Positions 6,279 to 62,824 of a stretch of DNA of 63,651 nucleotides are shown piece by piece; the first letter of the stretch is position 1, and every line of letters begins with the position of its first letter. The position numbers were made by a program, and so were the translations under genes. A model generated the notes under the pieces. That model was not told the origin of the DNA and did no database searches. It saw nothing but the letters and a program-made list of their open reading frames with translations. The stretch lies in the IMG/VR virus record IMGVR_UViG_3300037467_001235, positions 1 to 63,651 of that record; one strand, written 5' to 3'. The DNA is from a virus (Duplodnaviria > Caudoviricetes).

Positions 6279-6806
6279 TCAGGCGGGAAGCTCATTCAGC
6301 ATGTACTGATCCCCCGACTCTGATGGCACGGTCTTAACTGCCTCACTGGTGCAGGCGCCGGCCCCGAGGGCCCATGTCACCAAATCCACCATCTGCTGTG
6401 CGTGGGCACGGCAGGACACCTCGACAGTGACAACACGGCGCGCGACTCCGGGCATGGACAGGGGCGGGTCGTAGAGGTCGACAGACCAGGGTTCGTAGTC
6501 GCTGTCGTGGAAGAACGGTCCGGCGAGAAAGTAGCCGTCCGCGGTTTTGCAGGTGCGGCCCATGACCTGGACGAGGGGGTTTATGGGCGCGCCCTGGATG
6601 ACGTCGTGGGGGTCGATGTCGCCGAGCAGGCGCCGGTAGTTGGCTGCGGCGTCCTCGTATGCCTGATAGGCGGCCTGGTAGCGGTCGTTCCATTCCTCCC
6701 ACGCCTGTTCGCCGGTGGGTTCGTCGTGGAGGTAGGACAGCATGTCGGCGTCGGCGTTGGCTACGGCCTTGGCGGCGGCTACCTGTTCGGGGGTGTAGAT
6801 GATCAT
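6279..6806 (-). CDS. hypothetical protein
   Basis: MIIYTPEQV..., start defined by leader motif with AGGAG. Confidence 0.75.
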   Translation of the reverse strand: MIIYTPEQVAAAKAVANADADMLSYLHDEPTGEQAWEEWNDRYQAAYQAYEDAAANYRRLLGDIDPHDVIQGAPINPLVQVMGRTCKTADGYFLAGPFFHDSDYEPWSVDLYDPPLSMPGVARRVVTVEVSCRAHAQQMVDLVTWALGAGACTSEAVKTVPSESGDQYMLNELPA

Positions 6807-6846
6807 GTCCAGCTCCTCTGGATAGGTGCCAGCTTGTTCTGGCGAT
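6804..6846 (-). promoter_or_regulatory. double-hairpin leader motif copy A
   Basis: ATC GCCAG-AACAAG-CTGGC ACCTA TCCAG-AGGAG-CTGGA C ATG. Confidence 0.8.
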
Positions 6847-6856
6847 GAATGGGGGG

Positions 6857-7240
6857 TTATACGGCCTGGTAGACGACGGCCGCCAGATGTTCGGCCATGA
6901 CATGCATCAGCGCGCCGAGGGTAGATTCGGATTCGGTGGGCATGGCGCCGTGAACGGCGGCGCCGCACGAGCAATCGACCAACACGGTGCCGTCGTCGGC
7001 CTGAGTGACGGTCTCGGCGACATGCTCCCGCAGGAGCCCGGCGAGTTCGGCGGGGGTGGACATGTTCAGCTCCTCGGTTATCGGGTGTGGAGTCCGGCGG
7101 GTGAGCATTCGGGCCTTGCGCTGCTCGCTGGTGGGTTCGATCCAGGTGTGCCATCCGGCGTCTGGGTGCCAGCGTTGCAAGTGCTCCTCGCGGTCCACCT
7201 CGCAGTGTCGGCAGCTGTTCGGATTCGGCGTGTCGGTCAC
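6857..7240 (-). CDS. hypothetical protein
   Basis: 127-aa ORF, CxxC N-terminus; possible internal start at MSTPAEL with GAGGAG. Confidence 0.65.
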   Translation of the reverse strand: MTDTPNPNSCRHCEVDREEHLQRWHPDAGWHTWIEPTSEQRKARMLTRRTPHPITEELNMSTPAELAGLLREHVAETVTQADDGTVLVDCSCGAAVHGAMPTESESTLGALMHVMAEHLAAVVYQAV

Positions 7241-7250
7241 GGTGAGTCTC

Positions 7251-7493
7251 CTATCGGTTGAGTCCGGCGGCGCGGCGCCACCACGACAGGTGGATGGCGC
7301 GCTTCGGCCAGATCAGCGACCGCAGAACCACAGCCGACCACAACAGGATTGTGGCGAGGGCGGGGTGGGCGTGGCTGGCGGCAGCGACTTCGGGGTCGGT
7401 GTCCTGGATGTAGTGCAGCTCGGGGGCGAGCATGGAAGCGTTCACCCCGTACCCGCACAGGTAGACGGCGAGGGCAGCCCAGAGTGGTGTCAT
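7251..7493 (-). CDS. small membrane protein
   Basis: Two hydrophobic segments; GAGGA RBS. Confidence 0.65.
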   Translation of the reverse strand: MTPLWAALAVYLCGYGVNASMLAPELHYIQDTDPEVAAASHAHPALATILLWSAVVLRSLIWPKRAIHLSWWRRAAGLNR

Positions 7494-7495
7494 GG

Positions 7496-7669
7496 TCAGT
7501 CCTCGAAGTGCTCGCCGGTGACGAGCCCGTTCAAGCGCTCACGGGACATTCGAAGGCCCGCGTAAGCGAATCGGCGTGTCGCATCGTCGTTGGCCCGGTC
7601 GATCATGCGGTGCCAGTCGGCGATGTCGGCGCGCTGCTCGGTGATCATGTTGGCGAGTGCCTGCTCCAT
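7496..7669 (-). CDS. hypothetical protein (57 aa)
   Basis: MEQALANM..., start follows leader motif. Confidence 0.7.
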   Translation of the reverse strand: MEQALANMITEQRADIADWHRMIDRANDDATRRFAYAGLRMSRERLNGLVTGEHFED

Positions 7670-7744
7670 GGTTCCGGCCTTCCGGTTGGTGCCAGCTGAT
7701 CTGGCGATGCAGTCGACTATACCAGCGACCGACTGTATAGACAA
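7667..7744 (-). promoter_or_regulatory. promoter plus double-hairpin leader copy B
   Basis: TTGTCT-17-TATAGT, then ATC GCCAG-ATCAG-CTGGC ACCAA CCGG-AAGG-CCGG AACC ATG. Confidence 0.85.
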
Positions 7745-7762
7745 GCCTGCTAGCGCGCCTAG

Positions 7763-8074
7763 CTAGCTTTCCGAATCCCAACGCCCCAACACACCAACCA
7801 GATACGAACCTGCCGGCCACAAACCGAACCCGAACCACCACGGCAGATGCGCCACCAACGCGGTCGGGAACGCGAGGGCCGCGCACACCCACCAGCCGAA
7901 ACACCAGGGGCAGTGGACCAGGAAGGTGACCATGGAGCCGGGCCCGTACTGGCGTATAGCGGCGTTGCGGATCGGGTCACCGATCTTGTCCACCACCACG
8001 ATCCGGGTCAGTCGGGCGGCAGCGAGCACGTAGACGGCGAGGGTGAGCAGGGTTGCGAGAGTGCTGTGTGGCAT
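7763..8074 (-). CDS. membrane protein, DUF1360-like
   Basis: ARLTRIVVVDKI...LVHCPWCFGWW signature; 3 hydrophobic segments. Confidence 0.75.
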   Translation of the reverse strand: MPHSTLATLLTLAVYVLAAARLTRIVVVDKIGDPIRNAAIRQYGPGSMVTFLVHCPWCFGWWVCAALAFPTALVAHLPWWFGFGLWPAGSYLVGVLGRWDSES

Positions 8075-8082
8075 GGCCCGGC

Positions 8083-8103
8083 ACGGTATGTACTGGGGAT
8101 GCA
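8083..8103 (-). promoter_or_regulatory. late-promoter motif TGCATCCC-N7-TACCGT
   Basis: -10 is 8 nt upstream of ATG 8074. Confidence 0.7.
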
Positions 8104-8149
8104 GGATCATTCGGCTCCACCGCTATCGGCCGCGCCCTATCCTCGATTG

Positions 8150-8290
8150 ATGGAACCCACCCGGGACGACATGGATGACATCTACCTGCCCGATGGGCGG
8201 TTGAATCCTGAGTACACGCGCGGCGGCCCACCATCCGAGGAAGAGATGGAGGCGTTGGCGAAGCGTCGGCCTGTCTCCCGCGAGGAGTAG
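8150..8290 (+). CDS. small acidic protein (46 aa), antisense to its neighbours
   Basis: MEPTRDDMDDIYLPDGRLNPEY...; TATCCT 6 nt upstream suggests a leaderless start; fills the gap after terL. Confidence 0.5.
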   Translation: MEPTRDDMDDIYLPDGRLNPEYTRGGPPSEEEMEALAKRRPVSREE

Positions 8291-8295
8291 CCGCC

Positions 8296-9861
8296 CTACG
8301 TCAATCCCATGGGCATCTGACCCCAACTGCTCGGGTTGCGGGACGCCACAGTCTGCCCACCACCAGCCAGCACGTCATAGACGATCGCCGCCGCTGCCAC
8401 CCGGTCGGGACAGTGCTGCGATTCCATCCACCTGATCGCGTGCGCCTCGAACGTCGCCAACCGGTGCTGAACCACCCGAGCACGCCCATTCGAGGTGGCG
8501 TACCGGAATCCGGTGGACCGCACCAGAGCGTTGCCGGACCGCTTCCACGGCGAGACGTGGAACGGCCGCGACGCAGGCACACGGACATCCTCGACCATCC
8601 CGCTGTTGGCTGCAGCTTCGGCGGCGAGGTCGTCGTAGGCGCGTTTGATCAGCTGCTCGTACGCGACGGCCGCCGAATACGCTTCGTACACAACTTCGCT
8701 GGCGCCGGTGCGCAGAGCGAGCAGGCAGGCCACGCGCGGCCATTCAGCGGACGACAGCTGCCCGGAATGGTCATCGGTCAGGACCACGGTCCCGTCCGCT
8801 GTGTACCCGCCGGCGATCACGCCAGCCTCGTCGCCTTGCCCGGTCTCAGCCGGATCGACACCCACGATGCGGCGGTACAGGGGCGGCGGGTCGGTGTTGA
8901 TCCGGTAGTCCTCGAACCATTTCGCGTTGAACAAGCCACCATCGGCGGGGACAGGGTTGCCCTGGTACATCGACGCCCACACGCGCGGGGGTTTGGTTGC
9001 CCGGATCGCTTCCCAATCGGTTTCGCCGCGCGGGTTCTGCAGGTATTCGCCGTACGGCCGGTTGAGGGAGTCGAGGATGCCTGGTTCGGCGATGGCCGGG
9101 AAGTTCAGGATGCGCCACGGGCCCGGCTCCACCGCTTGGAGGTAGACGTGCATGTCTTCCTCGTTCCAGCGGGTGCCGATCATGACCAGGGAGGCTTCTG
9201 GGCCGAGGCGTTGAGAGCCGACCGTGTCCCACCAGGTGCGCACTCGGCGGCGTTCGGCGGGGGAGTCGGCGGCCAACATGCCGGAGAACAGGTCATCGAG
9301 GAGCATGTAATCGGCTGGGCGGCCTGGTAGTGCTGTGCCGACGCCTGCGGCGATGAGGCCACCGCGGTGACCGGCGAGCTGCCAGCGCCCGGCTGAGGAT
9401 TTCGCTTTGCTGATCTGGATGCCGAGCCGGTCTGGGAGAGGTGCCCCGGTCATGGAGTCGCGGGCGTCGGTGCCGTAGGTCTGGATGATCGTGCGGATAC
9501 GTTCGGAGTGGGTCAACGCGAGGTCTTCGGAGTGGGTGACCACGATGGTGCGCCAATCCGGGTGGCGTTGCAGTGCCCGCACGGTCCCGCCGATGACAGC
9601 CCGCTCCGACTTACCAGTCTGGGAGGGCTTCGATATCATCAGCCGCGCACGGGGCGTGGTCTGTGCCCACTCCAACGCCTCATCGATCATCCGCAGGTCC
9701 GGGGTTTGCACGACTGTCGGGTCAAGGGCTTGCATGAGGGCGCCGGCGGATGCGTGAGCGCGCACAGACGCGACCCTGGTGAGGTTTTGTCGCGCCCACG
9801 CGGTGAACGCGGCTCGCTCACCGGGCGGTAGCTTCGCCGCCCGCGCCCACACATCAGTCAT
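8296..9861 (-). CDS. terL: terminase large subunit
   Basis: Walker A PSQTGKSE, Walker B YMLLDD, IGTRWNEED, nuclease IVGVDPA and C-terminal PDRVAA. Confidence 0.95.
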   Translation of the reverse strand: MTDVWARAAKLPPGERAAFTAWARQNLTRVASVRAHASAGALMQALDPTVVQTPDLRMIDEALEWAQTTPRARLMISKPSQTGKSERAVIGGTVRALQRHPDWRTIVVTHSEDLALTHSERIRTIIQTYGTDARDSMTGAPLPDRLGIQISKAKSSAGRWQLAGHRGGLIAAGVGTALPGRPADYMLLDDLFSGMLAADSPAERRRVRTWWDTVGSQRLGPEASLVMIGTRWNEEDMHVYLQAVEPGPWRILNFPAIAEPGILDSLNRPYGEYLQNPRGETDWEAIRATKPPRVWASMYQGNPVPADGGLFNAKWFEDYRINTDPPPLYRRIVGVDPAETGQGDEAGVIAGGYTADGTVVLTDDHSGQLSSAEWPRVACLLALRTGASEVVYEAYSAAVAYEQLIKRAYDDLAAEAAANSGMVEDVRVPASRPFHVSPWKRSGNALVRSTGFRYATSNGRARVVQHRLATFEAHAIRWMESQHCPDRVAAAAIVYDVLAGGGQTVASRNPSSWGQMPMGLT

Positions 9862-10094
9862 GACCTGGCGACCCATCCCGCGCCGTGCTCGATCCCATCG
9901 AGATACGCAGCGACCGTCGTATAGCTGGCATCGCGCAGCACCTCGGTCTGATTGAGGTGGACGGCGAATCCTGCTCCAGTACGCGCGCCTCCCAGGCGCT
10001 CCACGGTGACCGGAATATCCAGCACCTCATGGATACGTGCGCAACGCTGACGCAAGTGCGCGGCGTCCTCGTCCTGATCCCACACATCAGTCAT
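9858..10094 (-). CDS. hypothetical protein
   Basis: 78 aa, coupled by overlap; starts MTDVW like terL. Confidence 0.7.
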   Translation of the reverse strand: MTDVWDQDEDAAHLRQRCARIHEVLDIPVTVERLGGARTGAGFAVHLNQTEVLRDASYTTVAAYLDGIEHGAGWVARS

Positions 10095-10329
10095 GGCCGG
10101 ACCGCCCTGGCGGCCATGCTTCGATCAGTTCGACTCGATCCACCTTCGACCAATCGAACGTCGGCACACCGCCGATCCAGTTGGCGGGCGCCAGCCAGTA
10201 GCGGCCCTCGCGGTCATGGCCGACCGATCCCACGCTGTAGGGCGGGGCCTCGGGATCAGGGTTTTTCCAGTAGATGCGGTAGACGCCGAATTCCAGTCTG
10301 GTGTCCCGGTATGTACGGATCTCGGTCAT
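10087..10329 (-). CDS. hypothetical protein
   Basis: 80-aa ORF in tight operon. Confidence 0.7.
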   Translation of the reverse strand: MTEIRTYRDTRLEFGVYRIYWKNPDPEAPPYSVGSVGHDREGRYWLAPANWIGGVPTFDWSKVDRVELIEAWPPGRSGHD

Positions 10330-10332
10330 GGG

Positions 10333-10836
10333 TCAGCCCTGCGCCCACTCAGGCCGGTAATCCGTGCACGCCTCTACGGTGCGGGCCAGCTTGGCGTGCA
10401 TCGCTTCCCGAGCATCCTGGTACCCGGGCGTGTTGATGATTGCCTCGTCCAGATGCAGCCTGAGGCCGTGTATCTGACCGCACCCTTCGCACTCCATCTC
10501 CCACTTCTGCCACCGGCCGGGAGGTGTATCGGTTGCCTCAGATGATTCGCGGATCGCGGGATTGAGCATGGTTCGGCCCTCATCCTCGTATCCGCTGAAC
10601 TGCACATGCACGAAGAACTGGTCTGGCGGGTTATGCGGATACCAGGCGTCATCGGCCAGGACATCGAAGATCGCGTCTTTCCCGGACTGCATGTGGCACA
10701 AGATGCGATCTCCCGCCTGCGGGCGCTGCCGCATGTGCCCATAGATCTGACCGCGCCCGGTCTCGTCCGGCATACGGAACCATTCGATGTTGTCGGCCCA
10801 GTTCGAATGGTCGGCCATGCGGAATGTGGTGGTCAT
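10333..10836 (-). CDS. hypothetical protein
   Basis: 167 aa, CxxC in C-terminal half. Confidence 0.7.
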   Translation of the reverse strand: MTTTFRMADHSNWADNIEWFRMPDETGRGQIYGHMRQRPQAGDRILCHMQSGKDAIFDVLADDAWYPHNPPDQFFVHVQFSGYEDEGRTMLNPAIRESSEATDTPPGRWQKWEMECEGCGQIHGLRLHLDEAIINTPGYQDAREAMHAKLARTVEACTDYRPEWAQG

Positions 10837-11126
10837 GACTCGTCCCGGCGGAACTGGTCGAGCGCGTCCCTTACGGCGTCCTCGCCGCTATCGGCCGAAT
10901 CCCACCACTCCACCGAGCGGAGGACATCGCGGAGCCGCACCATCTTGGCGTCGATCGTCTTCTCGAATTCGCGGATGCTGTCGAGGATGTCCGTGACAGC
11001 TTGCGCTGCATCGTCCGCGTAGCCCAGGCCGGCGAGTCGGTCGCGGATGGCTTCCAGGTCGTTGGTCGCGTCGTGGAGTTCACGGGCATCCTTGATGTAC
11101 AGGTAGTTGTAGCTGCCGCCGCTCAT
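10833..11126 (-). CDS. hypothetical protein
   Basis: MSGGSYNYLY..., TGATG coupling. Confidence 0.75.
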   Translation of the reverse strand: MSGGSYNYLYIKDARELHDATNDLEAIRDRLAGLGYADDAAQAVTDILDSIREFEKTIDAKMVRLRDVLRSVEWWDSADSGEDAVRDALDQFRRDES

Positions 11127-11338
11127 CAGTCGTCCTCGGGTTTCACAGTGTGCTCCAACAGCTCTTCCGGCCGCCCACGCCACAAGCGCACGTAGCCGCC
11201 TGTTTCGCGGACCACCACCCAATCTGTCCCGATAGCTTCGACGCGCTTGTCATCGTAGGAATCTCGGCCGAATGCTCCATAGCAGTAGCCGTAGAGGACG
11301 GCGCCTACACGGAGTTGAGTGTCGCTCGCAGCGGCCAT
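11126..11338 (-). CDS. hypothetical protein
   Basis: MAAASDTQLRVG...GYCYGAFGRDSYDDKRVEAIG; TGATG coupling. Confidence 0.75.
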   Translation of the reverse strand: MAAASDTQLRVGAVLYGYCYGAFGRDSYDDKRVEAIGTDWVVVRETGGYVRLWRGRPEELLEHTVKPEDD

Positions 11339-11706
11339 CAGTTGTCCTTCGGGAGGCCGGTGATGCGGATGCACGGCAGCTTCACGCTGAACACCTCGTC
11401 GCCGCGCTCCGGCTCCAGGGACGGAAGAGACATGCCCATGGTCAGCTGGGCGAGAGTGTCGTAGGTCCGTTCGAAGGTCGGGGGGTCCTCGTGCAGAATC
11501 CCGCCCATCACCGCGGCGAACTGGAGGAGGAACAGGTTGAGGCCCCACGGGTCGTAGGCGTAGACGAGGGTGCCGCCTTCCTCGTCGTGGTCGAACTCGA
11601 TACCGTCGAACTCCTCCCGCAACCACAAGACATTGCGGACGGTTTCCCACCGGATCGAGAAGACTTCCGCTGGCACGTCTTCCGGCGTGGCGTTCTGGTC
11701 GCTCAT
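11338..11706 (-). CDS. hypothetical protein
   Basis: MSDQNATPED...; TGATG coupling. Confidence 0.75.
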   Translation of the reverse strand: MSDQNATPEDVPAEVFSIRWETVRNVLWLREEFDGIEFDHDEEGGTLVYAYDPWGLNLFLLQFAAVMGGILHEDPPTFERTYDTLAQLTMGMSLPSLEPERGDEVFSVKLPCIRITGLPKDN

Positions 11707-11876
11707 CAGTCGTCCTTGTCGGTTCTGCGCGGCTGGACACGGCCTTCGTTGACGGCCTCGGCGAAGCCTTGAAACGCCCGCCGAACGCTCTCCGCCGCCG
11801 CATTCGTAGCTGCCTTCATCGCCATGATCTTCTCGCTCAGGGTTGGCTCGCGATTGAATTCGATCTGCTCGGCCAT
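11706..11876 (-). CDS. hypothetical protein (56 aa, not in ORF track)
   Basis: MAEQIEFNREPTLSEKIMAMKAA...TDKDD; TGATG-coupled at both ends. Confidence 0.75.
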   Translation of the reverse strand: MAEQIEFNREPTLSEKIMAMKAATNAAAESVRRAFQGFAEAVNEGRVQPRRTDKDD

Positions 11877-12250
11877 CAGTCGTCCTTGTCGTCTTCGGGG
11901 AACACGGGTTCGATCCGCGGGTCATGCCGCATCCCCTCCGCCACGATCCGCTGCCACCACCTGTTCGGAGGCAACTCGTCTTTCCGGGTACGCCACACCC
12001 GAACCCGAACCTTGTCCCCACCCTCGGGCACGGTCGCCATGAACTCGGCCACTTCACGATCGAACCGTTCGAACAGGGCCTCGATCTCCGCCCAAATACC
12101 TGTCGGGATCGGATCGCGCCCCGATTCCCACGACTGATAGGTGTTCGGGCGGACACCCAGCATTTCCGCCATATCCACCTGCTCCAACCCCAGGTATCGG
12201 CGGGATGCGGTGAGGCGGCCGGCGCGTCCGTGTTCGCGTGCGGTGGGCAT
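11876..12250 (-). CDS. XRE-like HTH DNA-binding protein
   Basis: RRYLGLEQVDMAEMLGVRPNTYQSWESGRDPIP; AAGGGAG RBS. Confidence 0.8.
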   Translation of the reverse strand: MPTAREHGRAGRLTASRRYLGLEQVDMAEMLGVRPNTYQSWESGRDPIPTGIWAEIEALFERFDREVAEFMATVPEGGDKVRVRVWRTRKDELPPNRWWQRIVAEGMRHDPRIEPVFPEDDKDD

Positions 12251-12348
12251 AGACTCCCTTTCGTCCAGCACGGCCGCTGCTCGACCGTGCTGGGCACCAT
12301 GATCACACGCTCTGCGGAGTGATCGTGGGGTGAGGGAGCGGCGTGGGG

Positions 12349-12705
12349 TCACGCGGCGATCCGGGTGGGCATGTCCACGCGGTCAGCGGTGTCCGCCAGG
12401 TGGGGGTGGACGAACCGCAGGTAGTTGCGGCACACCTTCACGGTGATGGTTTCGTATGCGTCGACCTGATCCGACAAGGCCAGCATGTTGATGTGGGAGC
12501 CCGCGATGTCGCCCGCGTAGGTGCGGTCGGTGCGGTCACCGTCGACGGTGACCCATTCGACCTCGACCGCGCCCGGCGCCCCGGTCTCTTCGCACATGGC
12601 GTTGTCCCAGCCGTCGCGGGTGACCTCGATACGCACACGGTCGTCGGCGTGGATACCGAGCGCTTCGGCGACCTGGGCGGCGGGGGTGGCGATGAAGGTG
12701 GTCAT
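12349..12705 (-). CDS. hypothetical protein
   Basis: MTTFIATPAA..., follows leader motif. Confidence 0.75.
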   Translation of the reverse strand: MTTFIATPAAQVAEALGIHADDRVRIEVTRDGWDNAMCEETGAPGAVEVEWVTVDGDRTDRTYAGDIAGSHINMLALSDQVDAYETITVKVCRNYLRFVHPHLADTADRVDMPTRIAA

Positions 12706-12779
12706 GTCCGGCTCCTCCGGGGTTGTGCCAGCTGGTCTGGCGATAAGATGAATATACATGCGCGTGATGGTGCGGTCAA
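12703..12779 (-). promoter_or_regulatory. promoter plus double-hairpin leader copy C
   Basis: TTGACC-17-TATATT, then ATC GCCAG-ACCAG-CTGGC ACAACC CCGG-AGGAG-CCGG AC ATG. Confidence 0.85.
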
Positions 12780-12937
12780 GCGCCCCGCTTCTTCGTCGCC
12801 CTCAGCTCGATACGATCACCGTTCGGCATCCGATACGTGAGCGACTGCCCACATCGACGGAGAACGTCAAACCCGTTGACGGCCAGCACGTCCGCCACGT
12901 CTCGGATGGCGTCGACAGCGGTATATGGCTCGTTCAC
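12776..12937 (-). CDS. hypothetical protein (53 aa)
   Basis: GTG start overlapping upstream stop. Confidence 0.55.
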   Translation of the reverse strand: MNEPYTAVDAIRDVADVLAVNGFDVLRRCGQSLTYRMPNGDRIELRATKKRGA

Positions 12938-13386
12938 AGCGGAGCCCTCGGCCGCCACAGGGCCACGCCACGATCCCGCCACTTGGCGAATTCGCCGAGA
13001 GTCCACGAATCAGGGTGAGTCCAGAACTTCCAGGACAGGCGACCACGAGTCAGATCTACCGCCAGGTCGCGGCCCTCATACCGGTGTGCGGATTCACGGG
13101 TGATCCAGCCGGCGACCCGACGCCCCGCGGTGATGCCCCAGTAGATCCCGCTGCCAAGGATGGTGAGGTGGCCGTCGAATGGGGTCGAGGACGCGCCTGT
13201 GCCGACGTGGAATCGGATGCTGAACTCGGGCTTCGGCTTCCGTAGGACGGTTTGGAAATCGACTGCGACGAGCTCCGTTTCGGCGTCCTCATGGGGACGA
13301 ATGTGGAAGTGGTGCGTTTTGTTGTGGAGCACACCGGGCCGTGGTCGGCGCGCCTGGCGGTCGATCGTGAAGCGGTGCAGGTACAT
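12934..13386 (-). CDS. hypothetical protein
   Basis: 150 aa, AGAAAGG RBS. Confidence 0.7.
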   Translation of the reverse strand: MYLHRFTIDRQARRPRPGVLHNKTHHFHIRPHEDAETELVAVDFQTVLRKPKPEFSIRFHVGTGASSTPFDGHLTILGSGIYWGITAGRRVAGWITRESAHRYEGRDLAVDLTRGRLSWKFWTHPDSWTLGEFAKWRDRGVALWRPRAPL

Positions 13387-13461
13387 CGGAGCCTTTCTGT
13401 TGATGGGTCTATCGAGCAGAACATCCGCCCAACCATGATCGGTTGAGCGGCTACCCAGGGT

Positions 13462-13686
13462 CTACGCTTCGCCCCAGTCGTAGCCCCGCTGATAGGCGTC
13501 ATACGCGACATCCTCGGGGACACCGGCACGTTCGGCGGTGGCGAAGGCTCGTTCGATCGCGGCCACCGTCTCCGGGGTGTCGGGGTAGCCGTCCTCCGCT
13601 TCCTTCCGGGCCAGGCTGCCGATGGTGACCAGCGCGGTGATGGCGGCGTCGAGGGTGGTTGCGGGGGCGGGGGTGATGGTGAGCAT
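13462..13686 (-). CDS. hypothetical protein
   Basis: MLTITPAP..., follows leader motif. Confidence 0.75.
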   Translation of the reverse strand: MLTITPAPATTLDAAITALVTIGSLARKEAEDGYPDTPETVAAIERAFATAERAGVPEDVAYDAYQRGYDWGEA

Positions 13687-13758
13687 GTCCGGCCTTCCGG
13701 TTGGTGCCAGCTGATCTGGCGATACGCACACTATACCAGCGAGTGACTGTACCGTCTA
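13684..13758 (-). promoter_or_regulatory. promoter plus double-hairpin leader copy D
   Basis: TAGACG-gtACAGTCACTCGCTGG-TATAGT, then ATC GCCAG-ATCAG-CTGGC ACCAA CCGG-AAGG-CCGG AC ATG. Confidence 0.85.
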
Positions 13759-13786
13759 GGGAATGCGTGGGCTCCTCTGGATACGT

Positions 13787-14023
13787 TCAGGCGTCGCCGG
13801 CCACCCGCCCCGGGAAGACGGTGAAATCGCGGTGACAGCGCGAGCAATCGAACCGGGCGATCGGGTCGTACCAGCTCTCACCGTCCTCGCCCTCCACGAT
13901 CCAGTCGTGCGGGAGCCGGGCACGGCACCGGAAGCACCACTTCTCACCCACCGGCTTACGGCTGAATACCCGCCATGAGGACGGCCGGCAGATGCTCAGG
14001 TTGCCACTGTGAATGCAAGTCAT
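13787..14023 (-). CDS. small zinc-ribbon protein
   Basis: Two CxxC pairs (CFRC, CSRC). Confidence 0.7.
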   Translation of the reverse strand: MTCIHSGNLSICRPSSWRVFSRKPVGEKWCFRCRARLPHDWIVEGEDGESWYDPIARFDCSRCHRDFTVFPGRVAGDA

Positions 14024-14274
14024 CGTCTGGCCACCTCGGCTCTCAACTCGTACTTCGGTTTCTGCCCGTGCAGCGGCGCCACCCGGAATGTCATCTCGTA
14101 TCCGCCGTCCGGGTCCTCCCATACGTCGAGGTACCCGAGGAACATGGTGTTCGGGTCGGGCCAGTAGCGGACCGGGATGCTGTGGTTGGGTTCGCGGTCG
14201 AGCGGGGCGGGCTGGAAGCCGTTGCGTTCGAGCGTGTCCCGTACTGCGCCACGGATGTCGGGGAACTCGTTCAT
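14020..14274 (-). CDS. hypothetical protein
   Basis: MNEFPDIRG..., ATGA overlaps. Confidence 0.7.
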   Translation of the reverse strand: MNEFPDIRGAVRDTLERNGFQPAPLDREPNHSIPVRYWPDPNTMFLGYLDVWEDPDGGYEMTFRVAPLHGQKPKYELRAEVARR

Positions 14275-14546
14275 TGGTTCACCTCTGTCGGCCAGTACTG
14301 CATCAACGTGTATCGCTCCGCCCGCTGACGGAACCACGACCAACGCAACCGCACACGCACCAACTCCCACCCAGCCCCACGCGTCTCCACCATCAGCAGG
14401 TCGCCCGGTTTCGCCCCGGGAAGCATGTCGATGGTGAGGTGGAGTTCGCCGGCGGTGATGTGGGGGATGGGGTCGCTGTCGCCGTTGGGTTGGAGGGCGT
14501 GGAGTTGGCGGTCGGGGGACACCAACACCATCTGATCCGCGATCAC
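14271..14546 (-). CDS. hypothetical protein
   Basis: GTGA overlap; operon packing. Confidence 0.65.
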   Translation of the reverse strand: MIADQMVLVSPDRQLHALQPNGDSDPIPHITAGELHLTIDMLPGAKPGDLLMVETRGAGWELVRVRLRWSWFRQRAERYTLMQYWPTEVNQ

Positions 14547-14767
14547 TGGTCGGTCTCGCTTCCGGGAGTAGTGGCCTTGATTCCAACCGTGACCCACCAT
14601 CCGTCGTTGGTCATGTCCTGTTCGATCTCGATTGTGGTAGCCGCGTCGTGATGGTCAGCCGGATGAACGTCGTGCGCCCACCAACCACCGGTCGGACAGT
14701 CGAGCCAGCGGATCTGGGCTCCGCAGGTATCGCAGGGGGCAGTGATGTAGTCGGTATGGTCGGTCAC
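14543..14767 (-). CDS. hypothetical protein
   Basis: 74 aa, CxxC and His-rich. Confidence 0.65.
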   Translation of the reverse strand: MTDHTDYITAPCDTCGAQIRWLDCPTGGWWAHDVHPADHHDAATTIEIEQDMTNDGWWVTVGIKATTPGSETDQ

Positions 14768-15054
14768 TGCTGGTTCTCGCTTTCGGGATCGGCCCGCAGG
14801 CTTTCGATCAGGGCCGGGATCTTGTCGTCCACCACGATTCCCAGGACCAGCTGCGCGAGGGCGAGCAGTGTCGGTGGGGCGTCGCAGTTGTTGAGCAGTG
14901 CCTCGGCGCGTTGGGCGTGCACGTAGGCCAGGGCTACCTTGTCGTGCAGTGCAGCTTGCTTGTTGCCGTGGAGGGCTTCGAGGATGTCGGCGGCGGAACG
15001 CATTCCGGCGTTACTGCGGGCGTCGGGTGGGGTGCCTTCGGGTACTACGCGCAT
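14764..15054 (-). CDS. hypothetical protein
   Basis: 96 aa, coupled. Confidence 0.65.
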   Translation of the reverse strand: MRVVPEGTPPDARSNAGMRSAADILEALHGNKQAALHDKVALAYVHAQRAEALLNNCDAPPTLLALAQLVLGIVVDDKIPALIESLRADPESENQQ

Positions 15055-15386
15055 CAGTCGGTCTCGCTTTCGGGTCGGGGGTTCACGATGTCGCCGATAC
15101 GGGCACGCACGTACTCACCCACGGCGGCCTTGTCGTCGTAGCCGAGTTCCAGCCAGTGGTCCTCGGTGAGGATGCCGGCCTGGACCGCGGTGAGGACGTT
15201 GGTGAGCTTCCGCTGCTCCACCAACTCCCCGAGATGCGCCGTGATGGCCAGGAGGGCGTGCGCGTTGGCTCGCTGGTGCAGCGCGGTCAGATAGCCGAGA
15301 ACGGTGGGAGTGGGGTTGTCGGTATGCAGCTCGGCTGTGAAGTGCTCGGCAGCGGTGCGGTGATCGGTTGGAAGTGGTTCGGGCAT
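15054..15386 (-). CDS. hypothetical protein
   Basis: 110 aa, GAAGGGA RBS. Confidence 0.7.
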   Translation of the reverse strand: MPEPLPTDHRTAAEHFTAELHTDNPTPTVLGYLTALHQRANAHALLAITAHLGELVEQRKLTNVLTAVQAGILTEDHWLELGYDDKAAVGEYVRARIGDIVNPRPESETD

Positions 15387-16070: not shown

Positions 16071-16261
16071 AGTGCTACCGCCAGGGAGAACAGGACGACG
16101 GCGACGATCCAGGTGACGACGGTGGCGGTGAGTCCGACAGCGACCGCGAGCGGCAGGACGAAGATCACGGTGAACAGTGACAGGCCCATCAAGAGCAGGG
16201 GGATTTCGACGCTGATGCGAGCCCGCGCTACGGTGAATCGGTTGGGGTGTTTGATGTGCAT
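16067..16261 (-). CDS. small membrane protein
   Basis: MHIKHPNRF...; two hydrophobic helices; follows leader motif. Confidence 0.7.
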   Translation of the reverse strand: MHIKHPNRFTVARARISVEIPLLLMGLSLFTVIFVLPLAVAVGLTATVVTWIVAVVLFSLAVAL

Positions 16262-16336
16262 TCCGGCTCTTTTCCGGTTGATGACGGCTGTTCCGTCGAT
16301 GTGGGTAACGATACCAGCGAGTGACTGTGTTGTCAC
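16259..16336 (-). promoter_or_regulatory. promoter plus double-hairpin leader copy E
   Basis: GTGACA-acACAGTCACTCGCTGG-TATCGT, then ATC GACGG-AACAG-CCGTC ATCAA CCGG-AAAAGAG-CCGG A ATG. Confidence 0.85.
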
Positions 16337-18871: not shown

Positions 18872-18878
18872 GGCGGGG

Positions 18879-19710: not shown

Positions 19711-19712
19711 GA

Positions 19713-26137: not shown

Positions 26138-26517
26138 CAGCCGCGGCGCTCGGCGTTGGCGGCCCGGTCTCGGGCCTGCTCCTCCCAAGTACGTCCGCAG
26201 GAGACGCAGCGCCCGTACCGCGATTCCTCGTGTCGGCAGCGGCACGGCGCGGTCTGCTCGGGTTGGGCGCTCTTGGCGAAGGCGTCGGCTACGGCGGCCA
26301 TAAGCGTGTTCGCGCGGGCCACGATCGCCTCGGCGTCGGCTTCCGCGATATCGCTCATGCCGGGCCTGTTCCAGGCGGCGGAGGATTCGAACCGGGTCGC
26401 GAGGTGGTCGGTCACGAGCTGATGAGCGAGAACGTCGATTGCCGCCAGTCTGGTACCGCGGAAAGCGGCGTCATTGACTGCACCGATGATCTCGGATGCA
26501 AAGTTGGGTGAACTCAA
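26137..26517 (-). CDS. hypothetical protein
   Basis: TTG start directly after leader motif. Confidence 0.7.
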   Translation of the reverse strand: MSSPNFASEIIGAVNDAAFRGTRLAAIDVLAHQLVTDHLATRFESSAAWNRPGMSDIAEADAEAIVARANTLMAAVADAFAKSAQPEQTAPCRCRHEESRYGRCVSCGRTWEEQARDRAANAERRG

Positions 26518-26592
26518 TTCCGGCTCCTATCCGGGTGATGCCAGCTGATCTGGCGATGGCTTGAATATACCTGCGTTCGCTGGTGTCGTCAA
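26515..26592 (-). promoter_or_regulatory. promoter plus double-hairpin leader copy F
   Basis: TTGACG-17-TATATT, then ATC GCCAG-ATCAG-CTGGC ATCAC CCGG-ATAGGAG-CCGG AA TTG. Confidence 0.85.
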
Positions 26593-28967: not shown

Positions 28968-29461
28968 TCGGCACCACCCAGAATCTTCGCGTCCTCCGCC
29001 GGACTGCCGAGTGAGACCGTGCCATCCTCAGCGATGGTGACGCTCACGCCCAGGAGTGCCCGTGCAGCCGACAGGGCGGTGGATTCGATAGCGGGGCGGG
29101 AGTTCAGGATCTCGACGGCGAGAGCGATCCTCAGCGGCCAATCAGCCGCCCCCGTCGAATCGCTCTTCCTCCGGTTGCATGGCGAACACGCCGACCGGAG
29201 ATTGTCGTCGGTGTTCTTGCCGCCCAGCGCCCGCGGCATGATGTGGTCGAGTTCGAGGAACACTGTGCGATCGCCGATTACGCAGAACGGGGCATTGTGC
29301 CCCCTCTCCTGCTTCGGCGTGGTGGGAGGTATGCGACGGCCGCAGTACTGGCACGTCCAATCGTCACGCTCGTAGACGCGACGACGCCGGCCGGGCGTGA
29401 TCTTCGGGGCCGGCAGGTAGCGCAGTCTGATGGGGGTTGTCGTCGCGTGGGTGTGGCTCAT
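28964..29461 (-). CDS. HNH endonuclease
   Basis: VYERDDWTCQYCG...LDHIMPRALGG...NLRSACSPCNRRK. Confidence 0.9.
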   Translation of the reverse strand: MSHTHATTTPIRLRYLPAPKITPGRRRRVYERDDWTCQYCGRRIPPTTPKQERGHNAPFCVIGDRTVFLELDHIMPRALGGKNTDDNLRSACSPCNRRKSDSTGAADWPLRIALAVEILNSRPAIESTALSAARALLGVSVTIAEDGTVSLGSPAEDAKILGGAE

Positions 29462-29512
29462 TTCCGGCTCCAATCCGGTTGGTGCCAGCTGACTGGCGAT
29501 GACTTGATGATA
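29459..29512 (-). promoter_or_regulatory. -10 plus double-hairpin leader copy G
   Basis: TATCAT-6nt-ATC GCCAG-TCAG-CTGGC ACCAA CCGG-ATTGGAG-CCGG AA ATG. Confidence 0.8.
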
Positions 29513-29556
29513 TGGGCACAGCAGCGAGGGGACCGCGCAAACGCGGCCCCCTCAAT

Positions 29557-56987: not shown

Positions 56988-58091
56988 TCATGCGTAGACG
57001 CCGCCCTTGACGGTCTCGGCCACAGTGACGGACGGCGACGTGCCGCCGGTCAGACCCGCACCCGAACCGGTCATCAACGGCAGATCCAGACCCGCCAGCT
57101 CGCCCTTGAACTCGCACACGTACGGCCCCGAACCGGTCACATCGATGTTCCCGGTGCCGATGGTCGACAGAGCCTCCAGCGCCGCCTTCACCGCGGTATT
57201 CGCGGCGTTGTATGCGATACCGGAGGTGGTCTGCGACTTGTAGGTGAGCGTGAAAGTCCCACCAGTCGGCGAACCGGTGATGGTCACGGTCTGCTTCTCG
57301 TTCGAAGCGACAGTGCCGCAAGCGGGCTGCTCCGGCGCCGTCTCCGCAGCCAACTCCCCGTAGTAGGGGGTCGGCAGGATCAGCGGGCACGCACCATCGG
57401 TGGGTTCCGGCGGGGCGATCGTGGTCTTGAACGACCGGTAGTGCTGGCCCGCCTTGATCGCGGTCAGCAGACGGCCCGGCGTGTTGTCCACGTCGGTGGC
57501 CATCACGTTGTACGGGCCGCGACCCCAGCGGGTGCCAGCGGCGGTGATGCCGGTGAGCGTGAAAGTCGATGCTTTCGCGCCGATCTCGGTGTCACCGACC
57601 TGCGCCTCTTTCAGGACGGGCCACAGCATGTACCCGTACGGCAGGTTCTGCACACCGCCCGCGCCGACGAGAATGTCATCGGAATCCGGGACATCGCAGG
57701 CGTCGTCGGAGCCGACACCCGACCACAATTCGATGGCGACACCAGTGGTGTCGGGGACTTCCTTCTGATCGGAGAAACCGATCGCCTTACCGTCCCAGGA
57801 GGTGACGACCTCCCAGTCCAACAGCATGTTGAAGAAGTCGGTGTCCACGCCACACAGTTCGATGGCGAGACTCCACCATTTGCGTTCGGGCGGGGTGCGA
57901 TCAGCTACGCACACACGCCCTTCGGCGTTGGTTTGTTCGATGTCGTCGGCGTCGCGCATCACGGGGGATGCCTTGACGGTGACGAATCCGGAGGTGACCA
58001 GCCGCGACCGCGGTCCGGCCAGGGGCATGCCACAAGCGTCGACCAGGGTCGCCCGCAGGCGCTTTCCCTTCACGACCGCGAAAGTTGCCAC
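56988..58091 (-). CDS. major tail protein with C-terminal extension
   Basis: RATLVDACG...NAEGRVCV...WGRGPYNV; strong RBS and late promoter. Confidence 0.9.
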   Translation of the reverse strand: MATFAVVKGKRLRATLVDACGMPLAGPRSRLVTSGFVTVKASPVMRDADDIEQTNAEGRVCVADRTPPERKWWSLAIELCGVDTDFFNMLLDWEVVTSWDGKAIGFSDQKEVPDTTGVAIELWSGVGSDDACDVPDSDDILVGAGGVQNLPYGYMLWPVLKEAQVGDTEIGAKASTFTLTGITAAGTRWGRGPYNVMATDVDNTPGRLLTAIKAGQHYRSFKTTIAPPEPTDGACPLILPTPYYGELAAETAPEQPACGTVASNEKQTVTITGSPTGGTFTLTYKSQTTSGIAYNAANTAVKAALEALSTIGTGNIDVTGSGPYVCEFKGELAGLDLPLMTGSGAGLTGGTSPSVTVAETVKGGVYA

Positions 58092-60423: not shown

Positions 60424-60457
60424 CAGGGAAACCACCTCTCAAAGGGGAAGGTCCGGC

Positions 60458-60508
60458 CGGGGGGCGGGGAGCGGGGGCAGCCACACAGGGACTGCTCCCC
60501 GCCCCCCG
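60458..60508. terminator. 15-bp stem-loop between the two capsid genes
   Basis: CGGGGGGCGGGGAGC...GCTCCCCGCCCCCCG. Confidence 0.7.
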
Positions 60509-60533
60509 AACCGGAGTCAGGGAAGAACGCCCG

Positions 60534-62600
60534 TTAGTTCGGGGCGCCCTTCGTGGTTTCCGCGACCGCGATCGACGGGCTGGTGCCGCCGGTGAACGAA
60601 CCGCTCACGGTGATCGCCGTGGTATCGGTGGCCGCCAGGTCGCCCTGGAACTTCACCGCGTACGGGCCGCCCGCGTTGCCGGTGACTGCGACATTGCCGG
60701 TGCCGATGGTGGACAGGCCCGCCAAAGCGGACTGCACCGTCGCGGCGGAGGCGTTGTACGGCAGAGCCGACGTGGTCTGACCCTTGTAGGTCGCGGTCCA
60801 GGTGCCGCCGGTCGGGGAACCGGTGATGGTGATGGTCTGGACCTCGGCGGTGTCGGTGGTGACCGCGATCTCGACCCGTCCACCCACGGAACCGTTCACA
60901 GCGACCGGCACGGTGACGACCTCGGAGACACGGCACCGGTTGTCCACCAGGTACTCGTCCTCGGTGAAGACCTCCATGTACCGGTTCTGCTGCAGGAGCG
61001 CCTTGTCGTACAGGGTGCCGACCTCGATCACGTTGGCGAGGTGACGGAACCACGCACCCGACGGGTACAGCAGCACCTGCGCGCTGCTCGGCCAGTGGGT
61101 GGCAGCATCGGGCAGGCCCTGCCAGTGACCGACCCACTGGATGCGGATGTTGCGGTTGGCCAGCCAACCGTCCACGGTCGCGTCGGTGACCGCCTTGACG
61201 TCCAGGCCCTGCTGCAGAGCCATATCCGCCGCAGCCGCCTTCAACAACCAACTCGGGGCCACACCCTCGATGGGCGCGGTGTGGGAGATGCGTTCCTTCT
61301 GCCGAATCACAGTCGCCCGCAACGCCAATCCATTGAGGATCGCGCCCGCACCACCCAGCACCGAACCGGTACCAGAGACCGCGGCAATACCCGACATCGC
61401 GGGAATGGTGATCGCCGACGAACCGGCCACCATGTCACCGATGGTCCACATGGACAGCTGGATCGCGTGAGCCTTCATCACCTCGGCCATGAACCGGGCA
61501 ATGACCTCCGGGTAACCCCTCCGCTGGAGGATGCCGGCGGTGACGCACAGGCCGATGGCTTCGGCGCGGATCTCCTCGAAAGTCGTGCACGGGATCTCGA
61601 TGCACGGCTTCGTCGGGTTCTCCATCAGCTCCGCTTCCGTGTACCGGAACGGCAGAGTCTCGTACAGCTCGGAGAAGTCGGGTTCGACCGGGCGCCGGAT
61701 ACCGCCACGGGTGATGTTCATGTCCGGCAGCGTGATCAGATCGGTCGCCGGGTTGACCTCGCAGAACTCGTAGCTGGTGTCCGAGGGCGAGCACCAACCA
61801 GCGGACGCGGTGAGAGCGCCGTCGTCGGCGAACTCGTTGGCCTTGTACGGGGTGGCCTTGATGATCTCGTTCACCTCGGCCGCGGCGTCGGTGTCCTTCT
61901 CGGACACGACGATCCGGTCCTGCCCGAACTCGCGGGACAGGGTGCCCAGGCTCATGGCGATCTTCTCGGCGCTGGAACGGTGCGGGTTGCGGTTCGACCG
62001 GATGACACTGGACGGGGCCATGCTGTCGATCGATGCGGCCAACTGCTCGTAACCAACCAGACCGGCCGCATACTTCGGCACATTCGCCGTCATGCGGAAA
62101 CCGATTTCCTGCTTCGGCGCGACGCGAGCCGGAGATTTTCCGGTACGCGCACCCAGGCCCTTGAAGCTCGCGACCTTCGGCTTGGTCGCCGCGGTCACCG
62201 CTTCCTGCGCGGCCTCCTGAGTCACCGCTTCCGCCTCGGCCACCACATCGGTGCCGCCGTCGCCGGGTTCGTCGGTCTCCTCGGTTTCGGTGTCGGTGTC
62301 CTCGTCGCCCTCCGGGTCCTCGTCGGGCTCCGCGCGCTTGGCGTTTCGGGCCTCGATCAGCTGACGGGCTTCTTCGGTGCGCTGCCGCTCCTCGGCCTGC
62401 ACCTCGCCGATCCGCGCCACCAGGGCATTGCCGGCGTCATTGAGCGCCTTCATATCGGCCACCACTTGGGCCGAAGGCGCAGGGCCGTCCTCGGTGACTT
62501 CCTTCTCCAGCTCCGCGAATTCGGCTTCGGCTGCGGTGGCCAGTTCGGTCAGCTGCTCGATCGAGAGCCCGTCCAGGCTCTCCGGCATCTGGAACTTCAT
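60534..62600 (-). CDS. major capsid (hexamer) protein with N-terminal scaffold-like region and C-terminal extension
   Basis: Acidic helical N-terminus, LTASAGWCSPS, K.C.EIPC, LYDKALL..N.Y...FTED. Confidence 0.9.
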   Translation of the reverse strand: MKFQMPESLDGLSIEQLTELATAAEAEFAELEKEVTEDGPAPSAQVVADMKALNDAGNALVARIGEVQAEERQRTEEARQLIEARNAKRAEPDEDPEGDEDTDTETEETDEPGDGGTDVVAEAEAVTQEAAQEAVTAATKPKVASFKGLGARTGKSPARVAPKQEIGFRMTANVPKYAAGLVGYEQLAASIDSMAPSSVIRSNRNPHRSSAEKIAMSLGTLSREFGQDRIVVSEKDTDAAAEVNEIIKATPYKANEFADDGALTASAGWCSPSDTSYEFCEVNPATDLITLPDMNITRGGIRRPVEPDFSELYETLPFRYTEAELMENPTKPCIEIPCTTFEEIRAEAIGLCVTAGILQRRGYPEVIARFMAEVMKAHAIQLSMWTIGDMVAGSSAITIPAMSGIAAVSGTGSVLGGAGAILNGLALRATVIRQKERISHTAPIEGVAPSWLLKAAAADMALQQGLDVKAVTDATVDGWLANRNIRIQWVGHWQGLPDAATHWPSSAQVLLYPSGAWFRHLANVIEVGTLYDKALLQQNRYMEVFTEDEYLVDNRCRVSEVVTVPVAVNGSVGGRVEIAVTTDTAEVQTITITGSPTGGTWTATYKGQTTSALPYNASAATVQSALAGLSTIGTGNVAVTGNAGGPYAVKFQGDLAATDTTAITVSGSFTGGTSPSIAVAETTKGAPN

Positions 62601-62671
62601 GTTCGTGTCCTCCCACGACAAATACGGTCTTTCGGTCCGGGAGGCCCACAGCCATGCCCCATTGGCCGCGC

Positions 62672-62692
62672 ACGGTAGGGAAGGGGGGTGCA
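62672..62692 (-). promoter_or_regulatory. late-promoter motif TGCACCCC-N7-TACCGT (capsid)
   Basis: Fixed spacing; a second TGCACCCC lies just upstream. Confidence 0.8.
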
Positions 62693-62743
62693 AAAACGGG
62701 GTGCAGCGAATTCAGGGCGGTTCGATTACGTGCCCGCGCGCAC

Positions 62744-62824
62744 TTGTTTATGCCAGCGTGTGACTGTATGGTTTGAGGTATCGACGGAATGCGCCGTCAC
62801 CAACCGGAAAGGCCGGAAACCATG
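62744..62824 (+). promoter_or_regulatory. promoter plus double-hairpin leader copy H
   Basis: TTGTTT-17-TATGGT, then ATC GACGG-AATGCG-CCGTC ACCAA CCGG-AAAGG-CCGG AAACC ATG. Confidence 0.85.

Follow-up and report, generated by a model that had tools for sequence, protein, structure and literature searches.

A repeated two-hairpin leader kept by compensatory base changes ahead of accessory genes in a group of temperate actinophages

The DNA stretch analyzed here (hereafter the window; 63,651 bp) is a complete virus record of IMG/VR, IMGVR_UViG_3300037467_001235, rated 100% complete. A leader element with a core of ~40 nucleotides (nt) recurs in it eight times, and about 50 copies were found over six related phages and prophages, all of them sense-oriented and directly ahead of a start codon. 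The leader contains two short hairpins, HP1 and HP2, the loop of the latter being a Shine-Dalgarno (SD) sequence, and in both hairpins base pairs are kept by compensatory change, the general hallmark of structured cis-regulatory RNAs. We put the chances at about even that the leader is a portable expression module for accessory genes, namely a cis-acting 5' leader that would combine a protective HP1 with an HP2 presenting the SD sequence. The repeats, their pairing and covariation, the promoter spacing and the gene context were observed directly.

The eight window copies, labeled here by the start of the leader (6846, 7708, 12744, 13723, 16300, 26557, 29500 and 62780), all consist of ATC, HP1 (5 bp with a loop of 4–6 nt), an A/C-rich linker, HP2, and the start codon. 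The linker is 5–8 nt long, CACCAAC-like and single-stranded. HP2 has 4–5 bp and a purine-rich loop (AAGG, AGGAG, ATAGGAG or similar), and its 3' arm serves as the spacer toward the start codon, which follows 1–5 nt beyond HP2 and is ATG except for one TTG. HP1 reads GCCAG/CTGGC in six copies and GACGG/CCGTC in two, and HP2 reads CCGG/CCGG in seven copies and (T)CCAG/CTGG(A) in copy 6846. A loose pattern (ATCG, stem 1, linker, CCGG) matched seven times compared with 0.70 expected matches, a number reached by none of 100 shuffles; the copy at 6804–6846 escapes this pattern through its variant HP2 helix. A covariance model built from the eight window copies (R1) and run on both window strands with filters off returned exactly eight matches of 51.7–64.6 bits, the next best match scoring 15.4 bits. 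A generic two-hairpin regular expression was too permissive in this GC-rich DNA (184 matches versus 82 in the reversed sequence). Alignment of the window copies with MAFFT followed by RNAalifold recovered both hairpins, HP1 with two compensated pairs, and the two-hairpin fold was the minimum free energy structure of seven of the eight copies when each was folded singly. The copies and their downstream genes are as follows.

6804..6846, minus strand: copy 1, leader with HP1 GCCAG/CTGGC and HP2 TCCAG/CTGGA, ATG at 6806-6804; R1 score 53.2 bits
6343..6806, minus strand: gene downstream of copy 1, 154 amino acids (aa), no family
7667..7744, minus strand: copy 2, promoter TTGTCT-17-TATAGT (7744-7716), leader 7708-7667; R1 score 60.7 bits
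7496..7669, minus strand: gene downstream of copy 2, 57 aa, no family
12703..12779, minus strand: copy 3, promoter TTGACC-17-TATATT (12779-12751), leader 12744-12703; R1 score 59.5 bits
12349..12705, minus strand: gene downstream of copy 3, 118 aa, no family, followed by an XRE-type helix-turn-helix (HTH) gene at 11876-12352
13684..13758, minus strand: copy 4, promoter TAGACG-17-TATAGT (13758-13730), leader 13723-13684; R1 score 64.6 bits
13462..13686, minus strand: gene downstream of copy 4, 74 aa, no family
16259..16336, minus strand: copy 5, promoter GTGACA-17-TATCGT (16336-16308), leader 16300-16259 with HP1 GACGG/CCGTC; R1 score 56.8 bits
16067..16261, minus strand: gene downstream of copy 5, 64 aa, hydrophobic, no family
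26515..26592, minus strand: copy 6, promoter TTGACG-17-TATATT (26592-26564), leader 26557-26515, TTG start; R1 score 60.1 bits
26137..26517, minus strand: gene downstream of copy 6, 126 aa, no family
29459..29552, minus strand: copy 7, GC-rich terminator-like hairpin (~29552-29527), -10-like TATCAT (29512-29507), leader 29500-29459; R1 score 59.9 bits
28964..29461, minus strand: gene downstream of copy 7, HNH endonuclease, abutting the replication-initiator gene at 27960-28967
62744..62824, plus strand: copy 8, the sole copy on this strand, promoter TTGTTT-17-TATGGT (62744-62772), leader 62780-62824 with HP1 GACGG/CCGTC; R1 score 51.7 bits
62822..63175, plus strand: gene downstream of copy 8, 117 aa, no family

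A preliminary description of this DNA had listed eight copies with their strands, and all of them were found as given, together with the covariation of both stems that it had noticed among them. Its statement that the copies precede small accessory genes or an HNH gene and never virion genes also stood: neither Pfam nor PHROG offers a family for seven of the eight downstream genes, and the eighth encodes an HNH endonuclease. Copies 6846 and 7708 lie between the terminase and portal genes, yet they too precede small genes without a family.

Beyond the window, the leader was detected in the IMG/VR contig G001 and in prophages of four out of 101 host-clade genomes. G001, the only further record retrieved by three DNA-pattern scans of IMG/VR, is 54.7 kb long (89% complete), carries eight copies, and relates to the window as a mosaic of 70–97% identity. 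When each species was scanned through a single genome, a 92-kb contig of an uncultured Actinomycetota metagenome-assembled genome (G003) emerged, of which the interval 29.8–88.9 kb is a prophage colinear with the window (68–79% identical) with 12 copies and one partial copy. Applied to 101 genomes near G003, R1 gave matches in 12, and clustered multiple copies occurred in four of these (G003, G006, G032, and G038). Among the other matched genomes, six had a single match in the 5' untranslated region (UTR) of thrS, and two (G043 and G081) were doubtful. At E ≤ 1e-4, nine copies were counted in G006, nine in G032 and five in G038. The loci of these more distant carriers encode large terminases (TerL) with 44–64% aa identity and orthologues of small genes adjoining the window copies, and all carriers are members of one phage group. 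No relatives of TerL were found by a protein-pattern search of IMG/VR, and no new carrier appeared when 151 genomes spread evenly over the order were sampled. R1 scored at best 13.8 bits, with no copy, on the phages NTR1 and SPI1 and Mycobacterium phage Athena, and neither megablast nor short blastn against 50,697 phage records yielded a leader copy. Among the matches listed from a metagenome pattern scan (80 of 100), all were chance matches that fell within coding sequence and were not followed by a start codon. Within the genomes searched, the leader family is thus confined to one small group of temperate actinophages.

The additional copies extended the record of base pairing considerably. 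Alignment A5 comprised 52 matches, 48 of them distinct and six of them host thrS leaders, and all 240 of its 240 HP1 cells were paired over the 48 distinct sequences. The five HP1 pairs in A5 were distributed as follows.

HP1 pair 1: invariant
HP1 pair 2: AU 27, CG 19, GC 2
HP1 pair 3: CG 41, GC 7
HP1 pair 4: GC 28, AU 20
HP1 pair 5: invariant

Double compensatory changes had thus occurred in three of the five pairs. The covariation score of HP1 was 0.338, compared with 0.135 ± 0.013 in shuffled alignments (0 of 500 reached the observed value) and with 0.147 for the best slid register. Direct parsing of the copies with a regular expression, which missed a few copies found by R1, gave 54 rows, of which four were judged false (G001 with GGTCG, G003 with GGGAT, G006 with CGCCG, and G006 with loop GGG). 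The HP1 helices of the 50 real rows were GACGG (20), GCCAG (19), GAGGG (7), GGCAG (2), GCCGG (1) and GACAG (1), all perfectly complementary; one more helix, UGGGG/CCCCA, was met outside the parsed rows with the generic two-hairpin expression. As a control, 80 chance matches to a pattern with stem positions 2 and 4 left free were inspected, and only 10 of them were complementary at both positions. Most HP1 loops of the 54 rows had 5 nt (29) or 6 nt (18), with six of 4 nt and one of 7 nt. Such variation is compatible with a hairpin but not with a rigid dimer site, and the combination of symmetry ending at 5 bp with an arm spacing that varies by three nt would ill suit a dimeric DNA-binding protein.

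In HP2, one pair switches between G-C and A-U among copies: CCGG/CCGG was found in 40 and CCAG/CTGG in ten of the 50 real rows, and mismatched combinations, although permitted by the expression, in none. A mismatch did occur in one copy found by R1 (G003, 56506), and the proportion of only 86.5% paired HP2 cells in A5 is explained by a partial misalignment of stem 2 there. When window copies were compared with the G003 copies at corresponding positions, HP2 differed by a double change at 12744, 16300, 26557, 29500 and 62780 and HP1 at 12744; this correspondence is a reading of colinearity, complemented for two loci by a gene-level comparison. The variety of HP1 implies a minimum of about five to seven separate double substitutions, with no intermediate seen. 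The suggestion that selection acts on the hairpin structure is therefore borne out more strongly than the eight window copies alone allowed, with six or seven HP1 helices in six genomes, all perfectly paired, and with covariation that persists in the larger alignment of 48 distinct sequences.

Under strict criteria, a sigma-70 scan of the entire window (both strands) found 10 sites, five of which lie directly upstream of leader copies; these five end 7–8 nt ahead of the ATCG and include the two best sites (10/12 matches). In a separate sigma-70 scan of the 5.5–17.5 kb region, four of five sites (1.6 expected) belonged to copies. Of the six promoters proposed in the preliminary description, the sixth, at copy 62780, is a weaker -35/-10 pair (TTGTTT/TATGGT). 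The remaining two copies are 29500, which has only the -10-like TATCAT after a GC-rich hairpin, and 6846, which has no promoter and begins 14 nt past the preceding stop codon. Over all copies, the layout of promoter plus leader holds for about two thirds, with a SigA-type promoter that often has an extended -10. In the promoter-bearing copies of all six genomes, HP1 starts 9–12 nt past the -10 hexamer. The bases before HP1 vary by genome, being ATC in three genomes and GTCA, GTTC or GTTA in the others. Over the 54 parsed rows, the gap between HP2 and the start codon was 1–7 nt, ATG was the start in 45, and the SD core lay within the HP2 loop. No promoter was recognized in 17 of these rows (four judged false), which corresponds to 13–17 of the 50 real copies or roughly a quarter to a third, and the earlier view that the element forms the entire 5' UTR accordingly does not apply to all copies. 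Promoter-less copies come after either a stop codon or, in repeated instances, a GC-rich hairpin located 6–17 nt upstream. Such hairpins, mostly without a U tract, were seen at 29527–29552 (minus strand) of the window and at ~56650, 66930, 73600 and 86350 of G003 contig C8, and their role may be to terminate transcription or to protect 3' ends where transcripts are processed. As a separate observation, the promoters of several copies in G006, G032 and G038 (loci L314, L316, L320, L325, L326, L329 and L330) contain inverted or alternating ACACG..CGTGT / GTGTGTGTATAGT elements in the spacer and extended -10, which are absent from the window promoters.

Since the leader is constant and the promoter is not, the role of the leader should be post-transcriptional. 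Transcription usually starts 6–8 nt past the -10 hexamer, as seen in mycobacterial maps of transcription start sites (TSS). Given the -10-to-HP1 distance, HP1 would then begin 1–5 nt from the 5' end of the transcript, where it could shield this end against 5'-end-dependent decay by RNase E or RNase J. The A/C-rich linker may act as a ribosome landing site and HP2 may hold the SD sequence in a fixed context, so that the downstream coding sequence would not affect initiation. Where no promoter is present, the leader could function as an intercistronic initiation module and, once the transcript has been processed between HP1 and the hairpin ahead of it, as a protected new 5' end. We further propose that the leader, because it is repeated, may also be a joint at which units of gene, hairpin and leader are gained and lost. 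TSS positions and effects on stability, translation and processing are in all these steps predictions from sequence. A role of HP1 as an intrinsic terminator was rejected, as it has just 5 bp and no U tract.

Several points weigh against this expression-module reading. The 4-bp stem of HP2 ties up the spacer between SD and AUG and could lower initiation instead of raising it. Folding z-scores of the window copies are weak (−0.96 to −2.37 versus shuffles). Alignment A5 was fitted to R1 and contains the six host thrS sequences, and its many covarying HP1 cells are cells and not events, so that they may stem from few changes. HP1 contains no G-U pairs at all, and covariation alone therefore cannot tell an RNA hairpin from a DNA hairpin. 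Moreover, each genome has one dominant HP1: among real rows, GACGG accounts for 10/10 in G006 and 7/7 in G038, and GAGGG for 7/8 in G032. Such genome specificity is not required of a purely structural element and hints at gene conversion, recent spread or a factor that reads the sequence.

The preliminary description had proposed that the motif is new. No matching family was found in Rfam 15, which at gathering thresholds gave no matches on the window or on six host loci; at E ≤ 1, run on six loci of the window and two of hosts, it gave none that overlapped a copy. We likewise found no description of the leader family in a literature search outside of which lay subscription journals and PDF supplements. 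The kind of element, however, is known. The accessible parts of two publications describe for cluster K mycobacteriophages 11–19 copies of a 13-nt start-associated sequence (SAS), GGGATAGGAGCCC, located 3–7 nt before mostly ATG starts of non-structural genes, with a core GGG-N7-CCC in which G/C arms surround a purine-rich SD and a scan rule that allows two deviations (PMC3203893). About half of the SAS have an upstream extended SAS (ESAS) with imperfect 17-bp inverted repeats (PMC3203893); ESAS are units of 46–50 nt with imperfect repeats of 15–17 bp, and the seven in phage Adephagia each contain a SigA-like promoter (PMC11373665). In these parts of the text, the authors see little support for RNA pairing and favor DNA-binding proteins (PMC3203893), and the roles of motifs known since 2011 (PMC3203893) were still called unclear in 2024 (PMC11373665). 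The leader resembles this system in being a many-copy, uniformly oriented motif at the ribosome-binding-site (RBS) position, where it shortly precedes the starts, mostly ATG, of genes for non-structural proteins, and in having a promoter and an inverted repeat upstream of the start-associated motif. Its position agrees with that of SAS as well, HP2 lying 1–7 nt ahead of the start compared with 3–9 nt for SAS. The likeness in sequence is closest in copy 26557, whose HP2 13-mer has the 11-nt core GGATAGGAGCC in common with the cluster K SAS and differs from it only in the two outer bases. Judged by eye, this is the one window copy out of eight within two deviations of the SAS consensus; copy 29500 deviates at three positions, and the loops of the rest are shorter. 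The arms of the leader are CCGG or CCAG versus GGG/CCC in SAS, and the loop is 4–7 nt long, so the family as a whole departs from SAS in sequence. It also departs from ESAS, which in the accessible descriptions have 15–17 bp imperfect repeats overlapping the promoter, whereas HP1 pairs perfectly over 5 bp, lies downstream of the -10 and shows compensatory changes, and a promoter precedes only about two thirds of the leader copies. In addition, the leader-carrying phages are unrelated to the cluster K phages at the sequence level. A further RBS-position motif, GGGAAAGGACCCC, occurs in about ten copies per genome in cluster EF Microbacterium phages, with a weakly conserved upstream extension and a function given as unknown, and other start-proximal repeats are found in clusters EC and EG (PMC7302621, as far as accessible). 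The EF motif differs in sequence, and the accessible description contains no hairpin covariation. Since HP2 is a close look-alike of SAS and promoter-plus-SAS units have already been described as ESAS, we regard the motif as new and its kind as known; the novelty claim thus survives for the motif, which has no Rfam match, and not for the kind, with copy 26557 lying within two mismatches of SAS. As far as the literature was searched, the leader is the first start-associated unit with clean compensatory evolution. Covariation turns a vague conserved motif into a model that can be tested by mutation, that is, a 5' hairpin followed by a hairpin with the SD in its loop, and this model suggests that SAS itself may be read as a small hairpin. 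A compact promoter-leader that insulates from context could also serve as an expression part for high-GC actinobacteria.

Other systems share single aspects with the leader. 5'-terminal stabilizer hairpins and SD stabilizers are found in the E. coli ompA leader, the B. subtilis aprE leader and cryIIIA STAB-SD, which are experimentally supported single-gene cases. They are alike in having a short hairpin near the 5' end, a strong SD close by and a proposed RNase shield, whereas the leader described here is a multi-copy family known from sequence alone, in which the geometry between HP1 and the 5' end is represented only by the -10-to-HP1 distance. PeSL of T4-type phages are promoters plus stem-loops around small accessory genes with a proposed role in gene shuffling; they belong to another host and another promoter class and have no SD hairpin. 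The conserved inverted repeats (CIRs) of phiC31 and stoperators are protein-binding DNA sites with asymmetry or fixed spacing. Like the leader, they are short sites present in many copies across a temperate actinophage genome and tied to transcription units; spacing in the leader, however, varies (4–7 nt), its symmetry is limited to 5 bp, and its pairing is strictly kept. Cluster A stoperators are also named as a comparison in the accessible part of the SAS paper (PMC3203893).

The single R1 matches of 28–39 bits in the thrS 5' UTR of six host-clade genomes (G044, G007, G025, G027, G046 and G008; at about position 1500 of loci L315, L317, L318, L319, L321 and L324) represent a look-alike module that follows a promoter and a first hairpin and lies 65–70 nt before the start. 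It reads AUCGACGG-loop-CCGUCAC plus a CCGG hairpin, as in the minority HP1 type of the window. In the lysogens G003, G006 and G038, the thrS leaders have kept the promoter and lack the module; the phages are therefore not copying the thrS leader of their own host, and mimicry of this leader was rejected. The look-alike may have arisen by capture or by convergence. It was also dismissed as a tRNA-anticodon mimic or T-box specifier, as its loops (ACCAG, ACGAG and AUCGAG) are inconsistent and the T-box model gave no Rfam match on the thrS loci. Apart from this, two near-identical host loci of G003 (contig C12, ~715.1 kb and ~665.8 kb; L205 and L206) contain the 3' half of the leader (the A/C-rich linker and GGGAGCCGGACATG) without HP1 ahead of duplicated genes.

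The leader might instead be an RNA operator for a trans-acting phage or host protein, which by binding to HP1, the linker or HP2 would control the translation of all cassette genes together. We consider this unlikely, albeit in keeping with several observations: non-stem bases are kept within a lineage (ATC before HP1, A or G followed by C after it, and A...G in the loop), a single HP1 dominates each genome and differs between genomes, and a similar module stands in the thrS 5' UTR of the six host-clade genomes. The SAS authors, too, weigh a bound factor in the accessible text (PMC3203893, PMC11373665). A binding protein would have to accommodate minority HP1 variants that coexist within one genome and are still perfectly paired as well as HP2 loops of variable length (4–7 nt); no candidate RNA-binding protein was identified, the phage regulators found being of the XRE-type HTH class, and the thrS leaders of three lysogens are without the module. 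In a more elaborate form, which seems to us quite unlikely, one trans-acting factor would co-evolve with the dominant HP1 of each phage, the accessory cassettes would form a regulon switched at translation or mRNA decay, and crossover at the leader would also add cassettes to it or remove them. If this were true, the SAS/ESAS motifs would be explained as hairpin operators and the thrS look-alike as a captured copy or the source. Very unlikely, in our estimate, is that HP1 is a DNA operator, i.e., a palindrome past the start site through which a phage repressor would block the promoters in the lysogen, comparable to phiC31 CIRs, cluster A stoperators or the role proposed for ESAS inverted repeats. 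The phage is temperate, with a serine integrase, a repressor/cro-like pair and an anti-repressor, the palindrome would occupy about +4 to +19 of the predicted transcripts, HP1 is free of G-U pairs and its type is genome-specific; a regulator was also proposed for the ESAS repeats by the Adephagia authors in the accessible text (PMC11373665). Half-sites of just 5 bp that are perfectly symmetric in every copy, a spacing of 4–7 nt and a symmetry that stops short of the flanks speak against it, as do the variable positions, which always change on both sides although protein contacts would not demand this, and the 17 of 54 rows (four judged false) that have no promoter to repress.

That the repeats are chiefly recombination joints or ends of mobile cassettes, with expression as a secondary role, we find highly doubtful, and some of the gene-shuffling idea of the preliminary description is nevertheless retained. 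Gains and losses bounded by leaders were seen at two sites, where units of gene, hairpin and leader in G003 are inserted between an orthologous promoter-leader and an orthologous gene. The extra units, at 73500–73955 and 56506–56730 of contig C8, contain open reading frames of 112 aa and 32 aa, and the window has a plain promoter-leader-gene order there. The orthologue of the gene downstream of copy 5 is preceded in G003 by an extra gene-hairpin-leader unit, and ahead of the orthologue of the gene downstream of copy 8 stand an additional small gene, a terminator hairpin and another leader. Leader-bearing cassettes after TerL number none in the window, one in G001 and two in G003 as read from coordinates, and in RNA-library contigs of relatives, joints and ends coincide with cassette edges, although breaks and joints of contigs at a repeat can be assembly artefacts. 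Five of the seven comparable window copies lie ≤20 nt from a homology break with G001, a figure that may not exceed that for other gene boundaries, where mosaic breaks of phages fall in any case. One indel or more (window 12783–13419 versus G001) is not bounded by leaders, and recombination would require neither strict pairing nor the SD geometry. HK022 put RNA is a processive antiterminator that acts in cis. It is extremely unlikely that the two hairpins act on RNA polymerase in this manner to read through the GC-rich hairpins between cassettes: they do follow straight after the promoter, and GC-rich hairpins are present inside the same transcription units, but the leader hairpins are far smaller than put RNA, copies also occur directly after GC-rich hairpins without a promoter, and HP2 is already accounted for by the SD.

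Based on PHROG and Pfam matches, the window is the genome of a temperate siphovirus with nearly all genes on the minus strand, taken here to infect soil actinobacteria. Seven leader copies lie in the early/accessory part of the genome and in the terminase-portal interval, and the one on the plus strand lies beside the capsid gene. The main features assigned by PHROG/Pfam are as follows.

1790-3616: portal
8296-9876: large terminase
27960-28967: replication initiator
28964-29461 and 29557-29901: HNH endonucleases
30720-31388: Erf
32032-33039: anti-repressor
33008-33247 and 33331-33627: divergent cro-like / repressor-like pair
35361-36716: serine integrase
37288-38307: lysin
44729-50134: tape measure
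56988-58091, minus strand: major tail protein
60534-62693, minus strand: capsid

Judged by the capsid protein, Nocardia phage NTR1 and Skermania phage SPI1 come closest among cultured phages (~40% aa identity), with cluster B mycobacteriophages next, and none of the 50,697 phage records gave a nucleotide match to the window. Contigs of four RNA-library runs from one root-metagenome study are 90–99% like parts of the interval 5000–20000, and we conclude from this similarity that relatives of the phage were present in these samples; the RNA-library data are contigs only and have no bearing on TSS, strand or transcription. A protein of 163 aa whose gene lies just upstream of copy 5 carries the PHROG label 'Rnase E'; it was discarded as a candidate, having no PDB or NCBIfam match and only a sub-threshold match to sigma region 4. 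Between terminase and portal, the only long gene against the direction of the others (4220–5590, plus strand) encodes a 456-aa XRE-HTH regulator with a weak match resembling tetratricopeptide repeats (TPR) that may be expressed in the lysogen. The capsid (residues ~606–718) and the major tail protein (~259–360) match the same PHROGs 10909, 2839 and 5042 and thus have a C-terminal domain in common. Paralogues were seen on the minus strand as three tandem copies of phrog_282 (39825–41632) and two dispersed copies of phrog_3962 (18027–18518 and 21830–22189).

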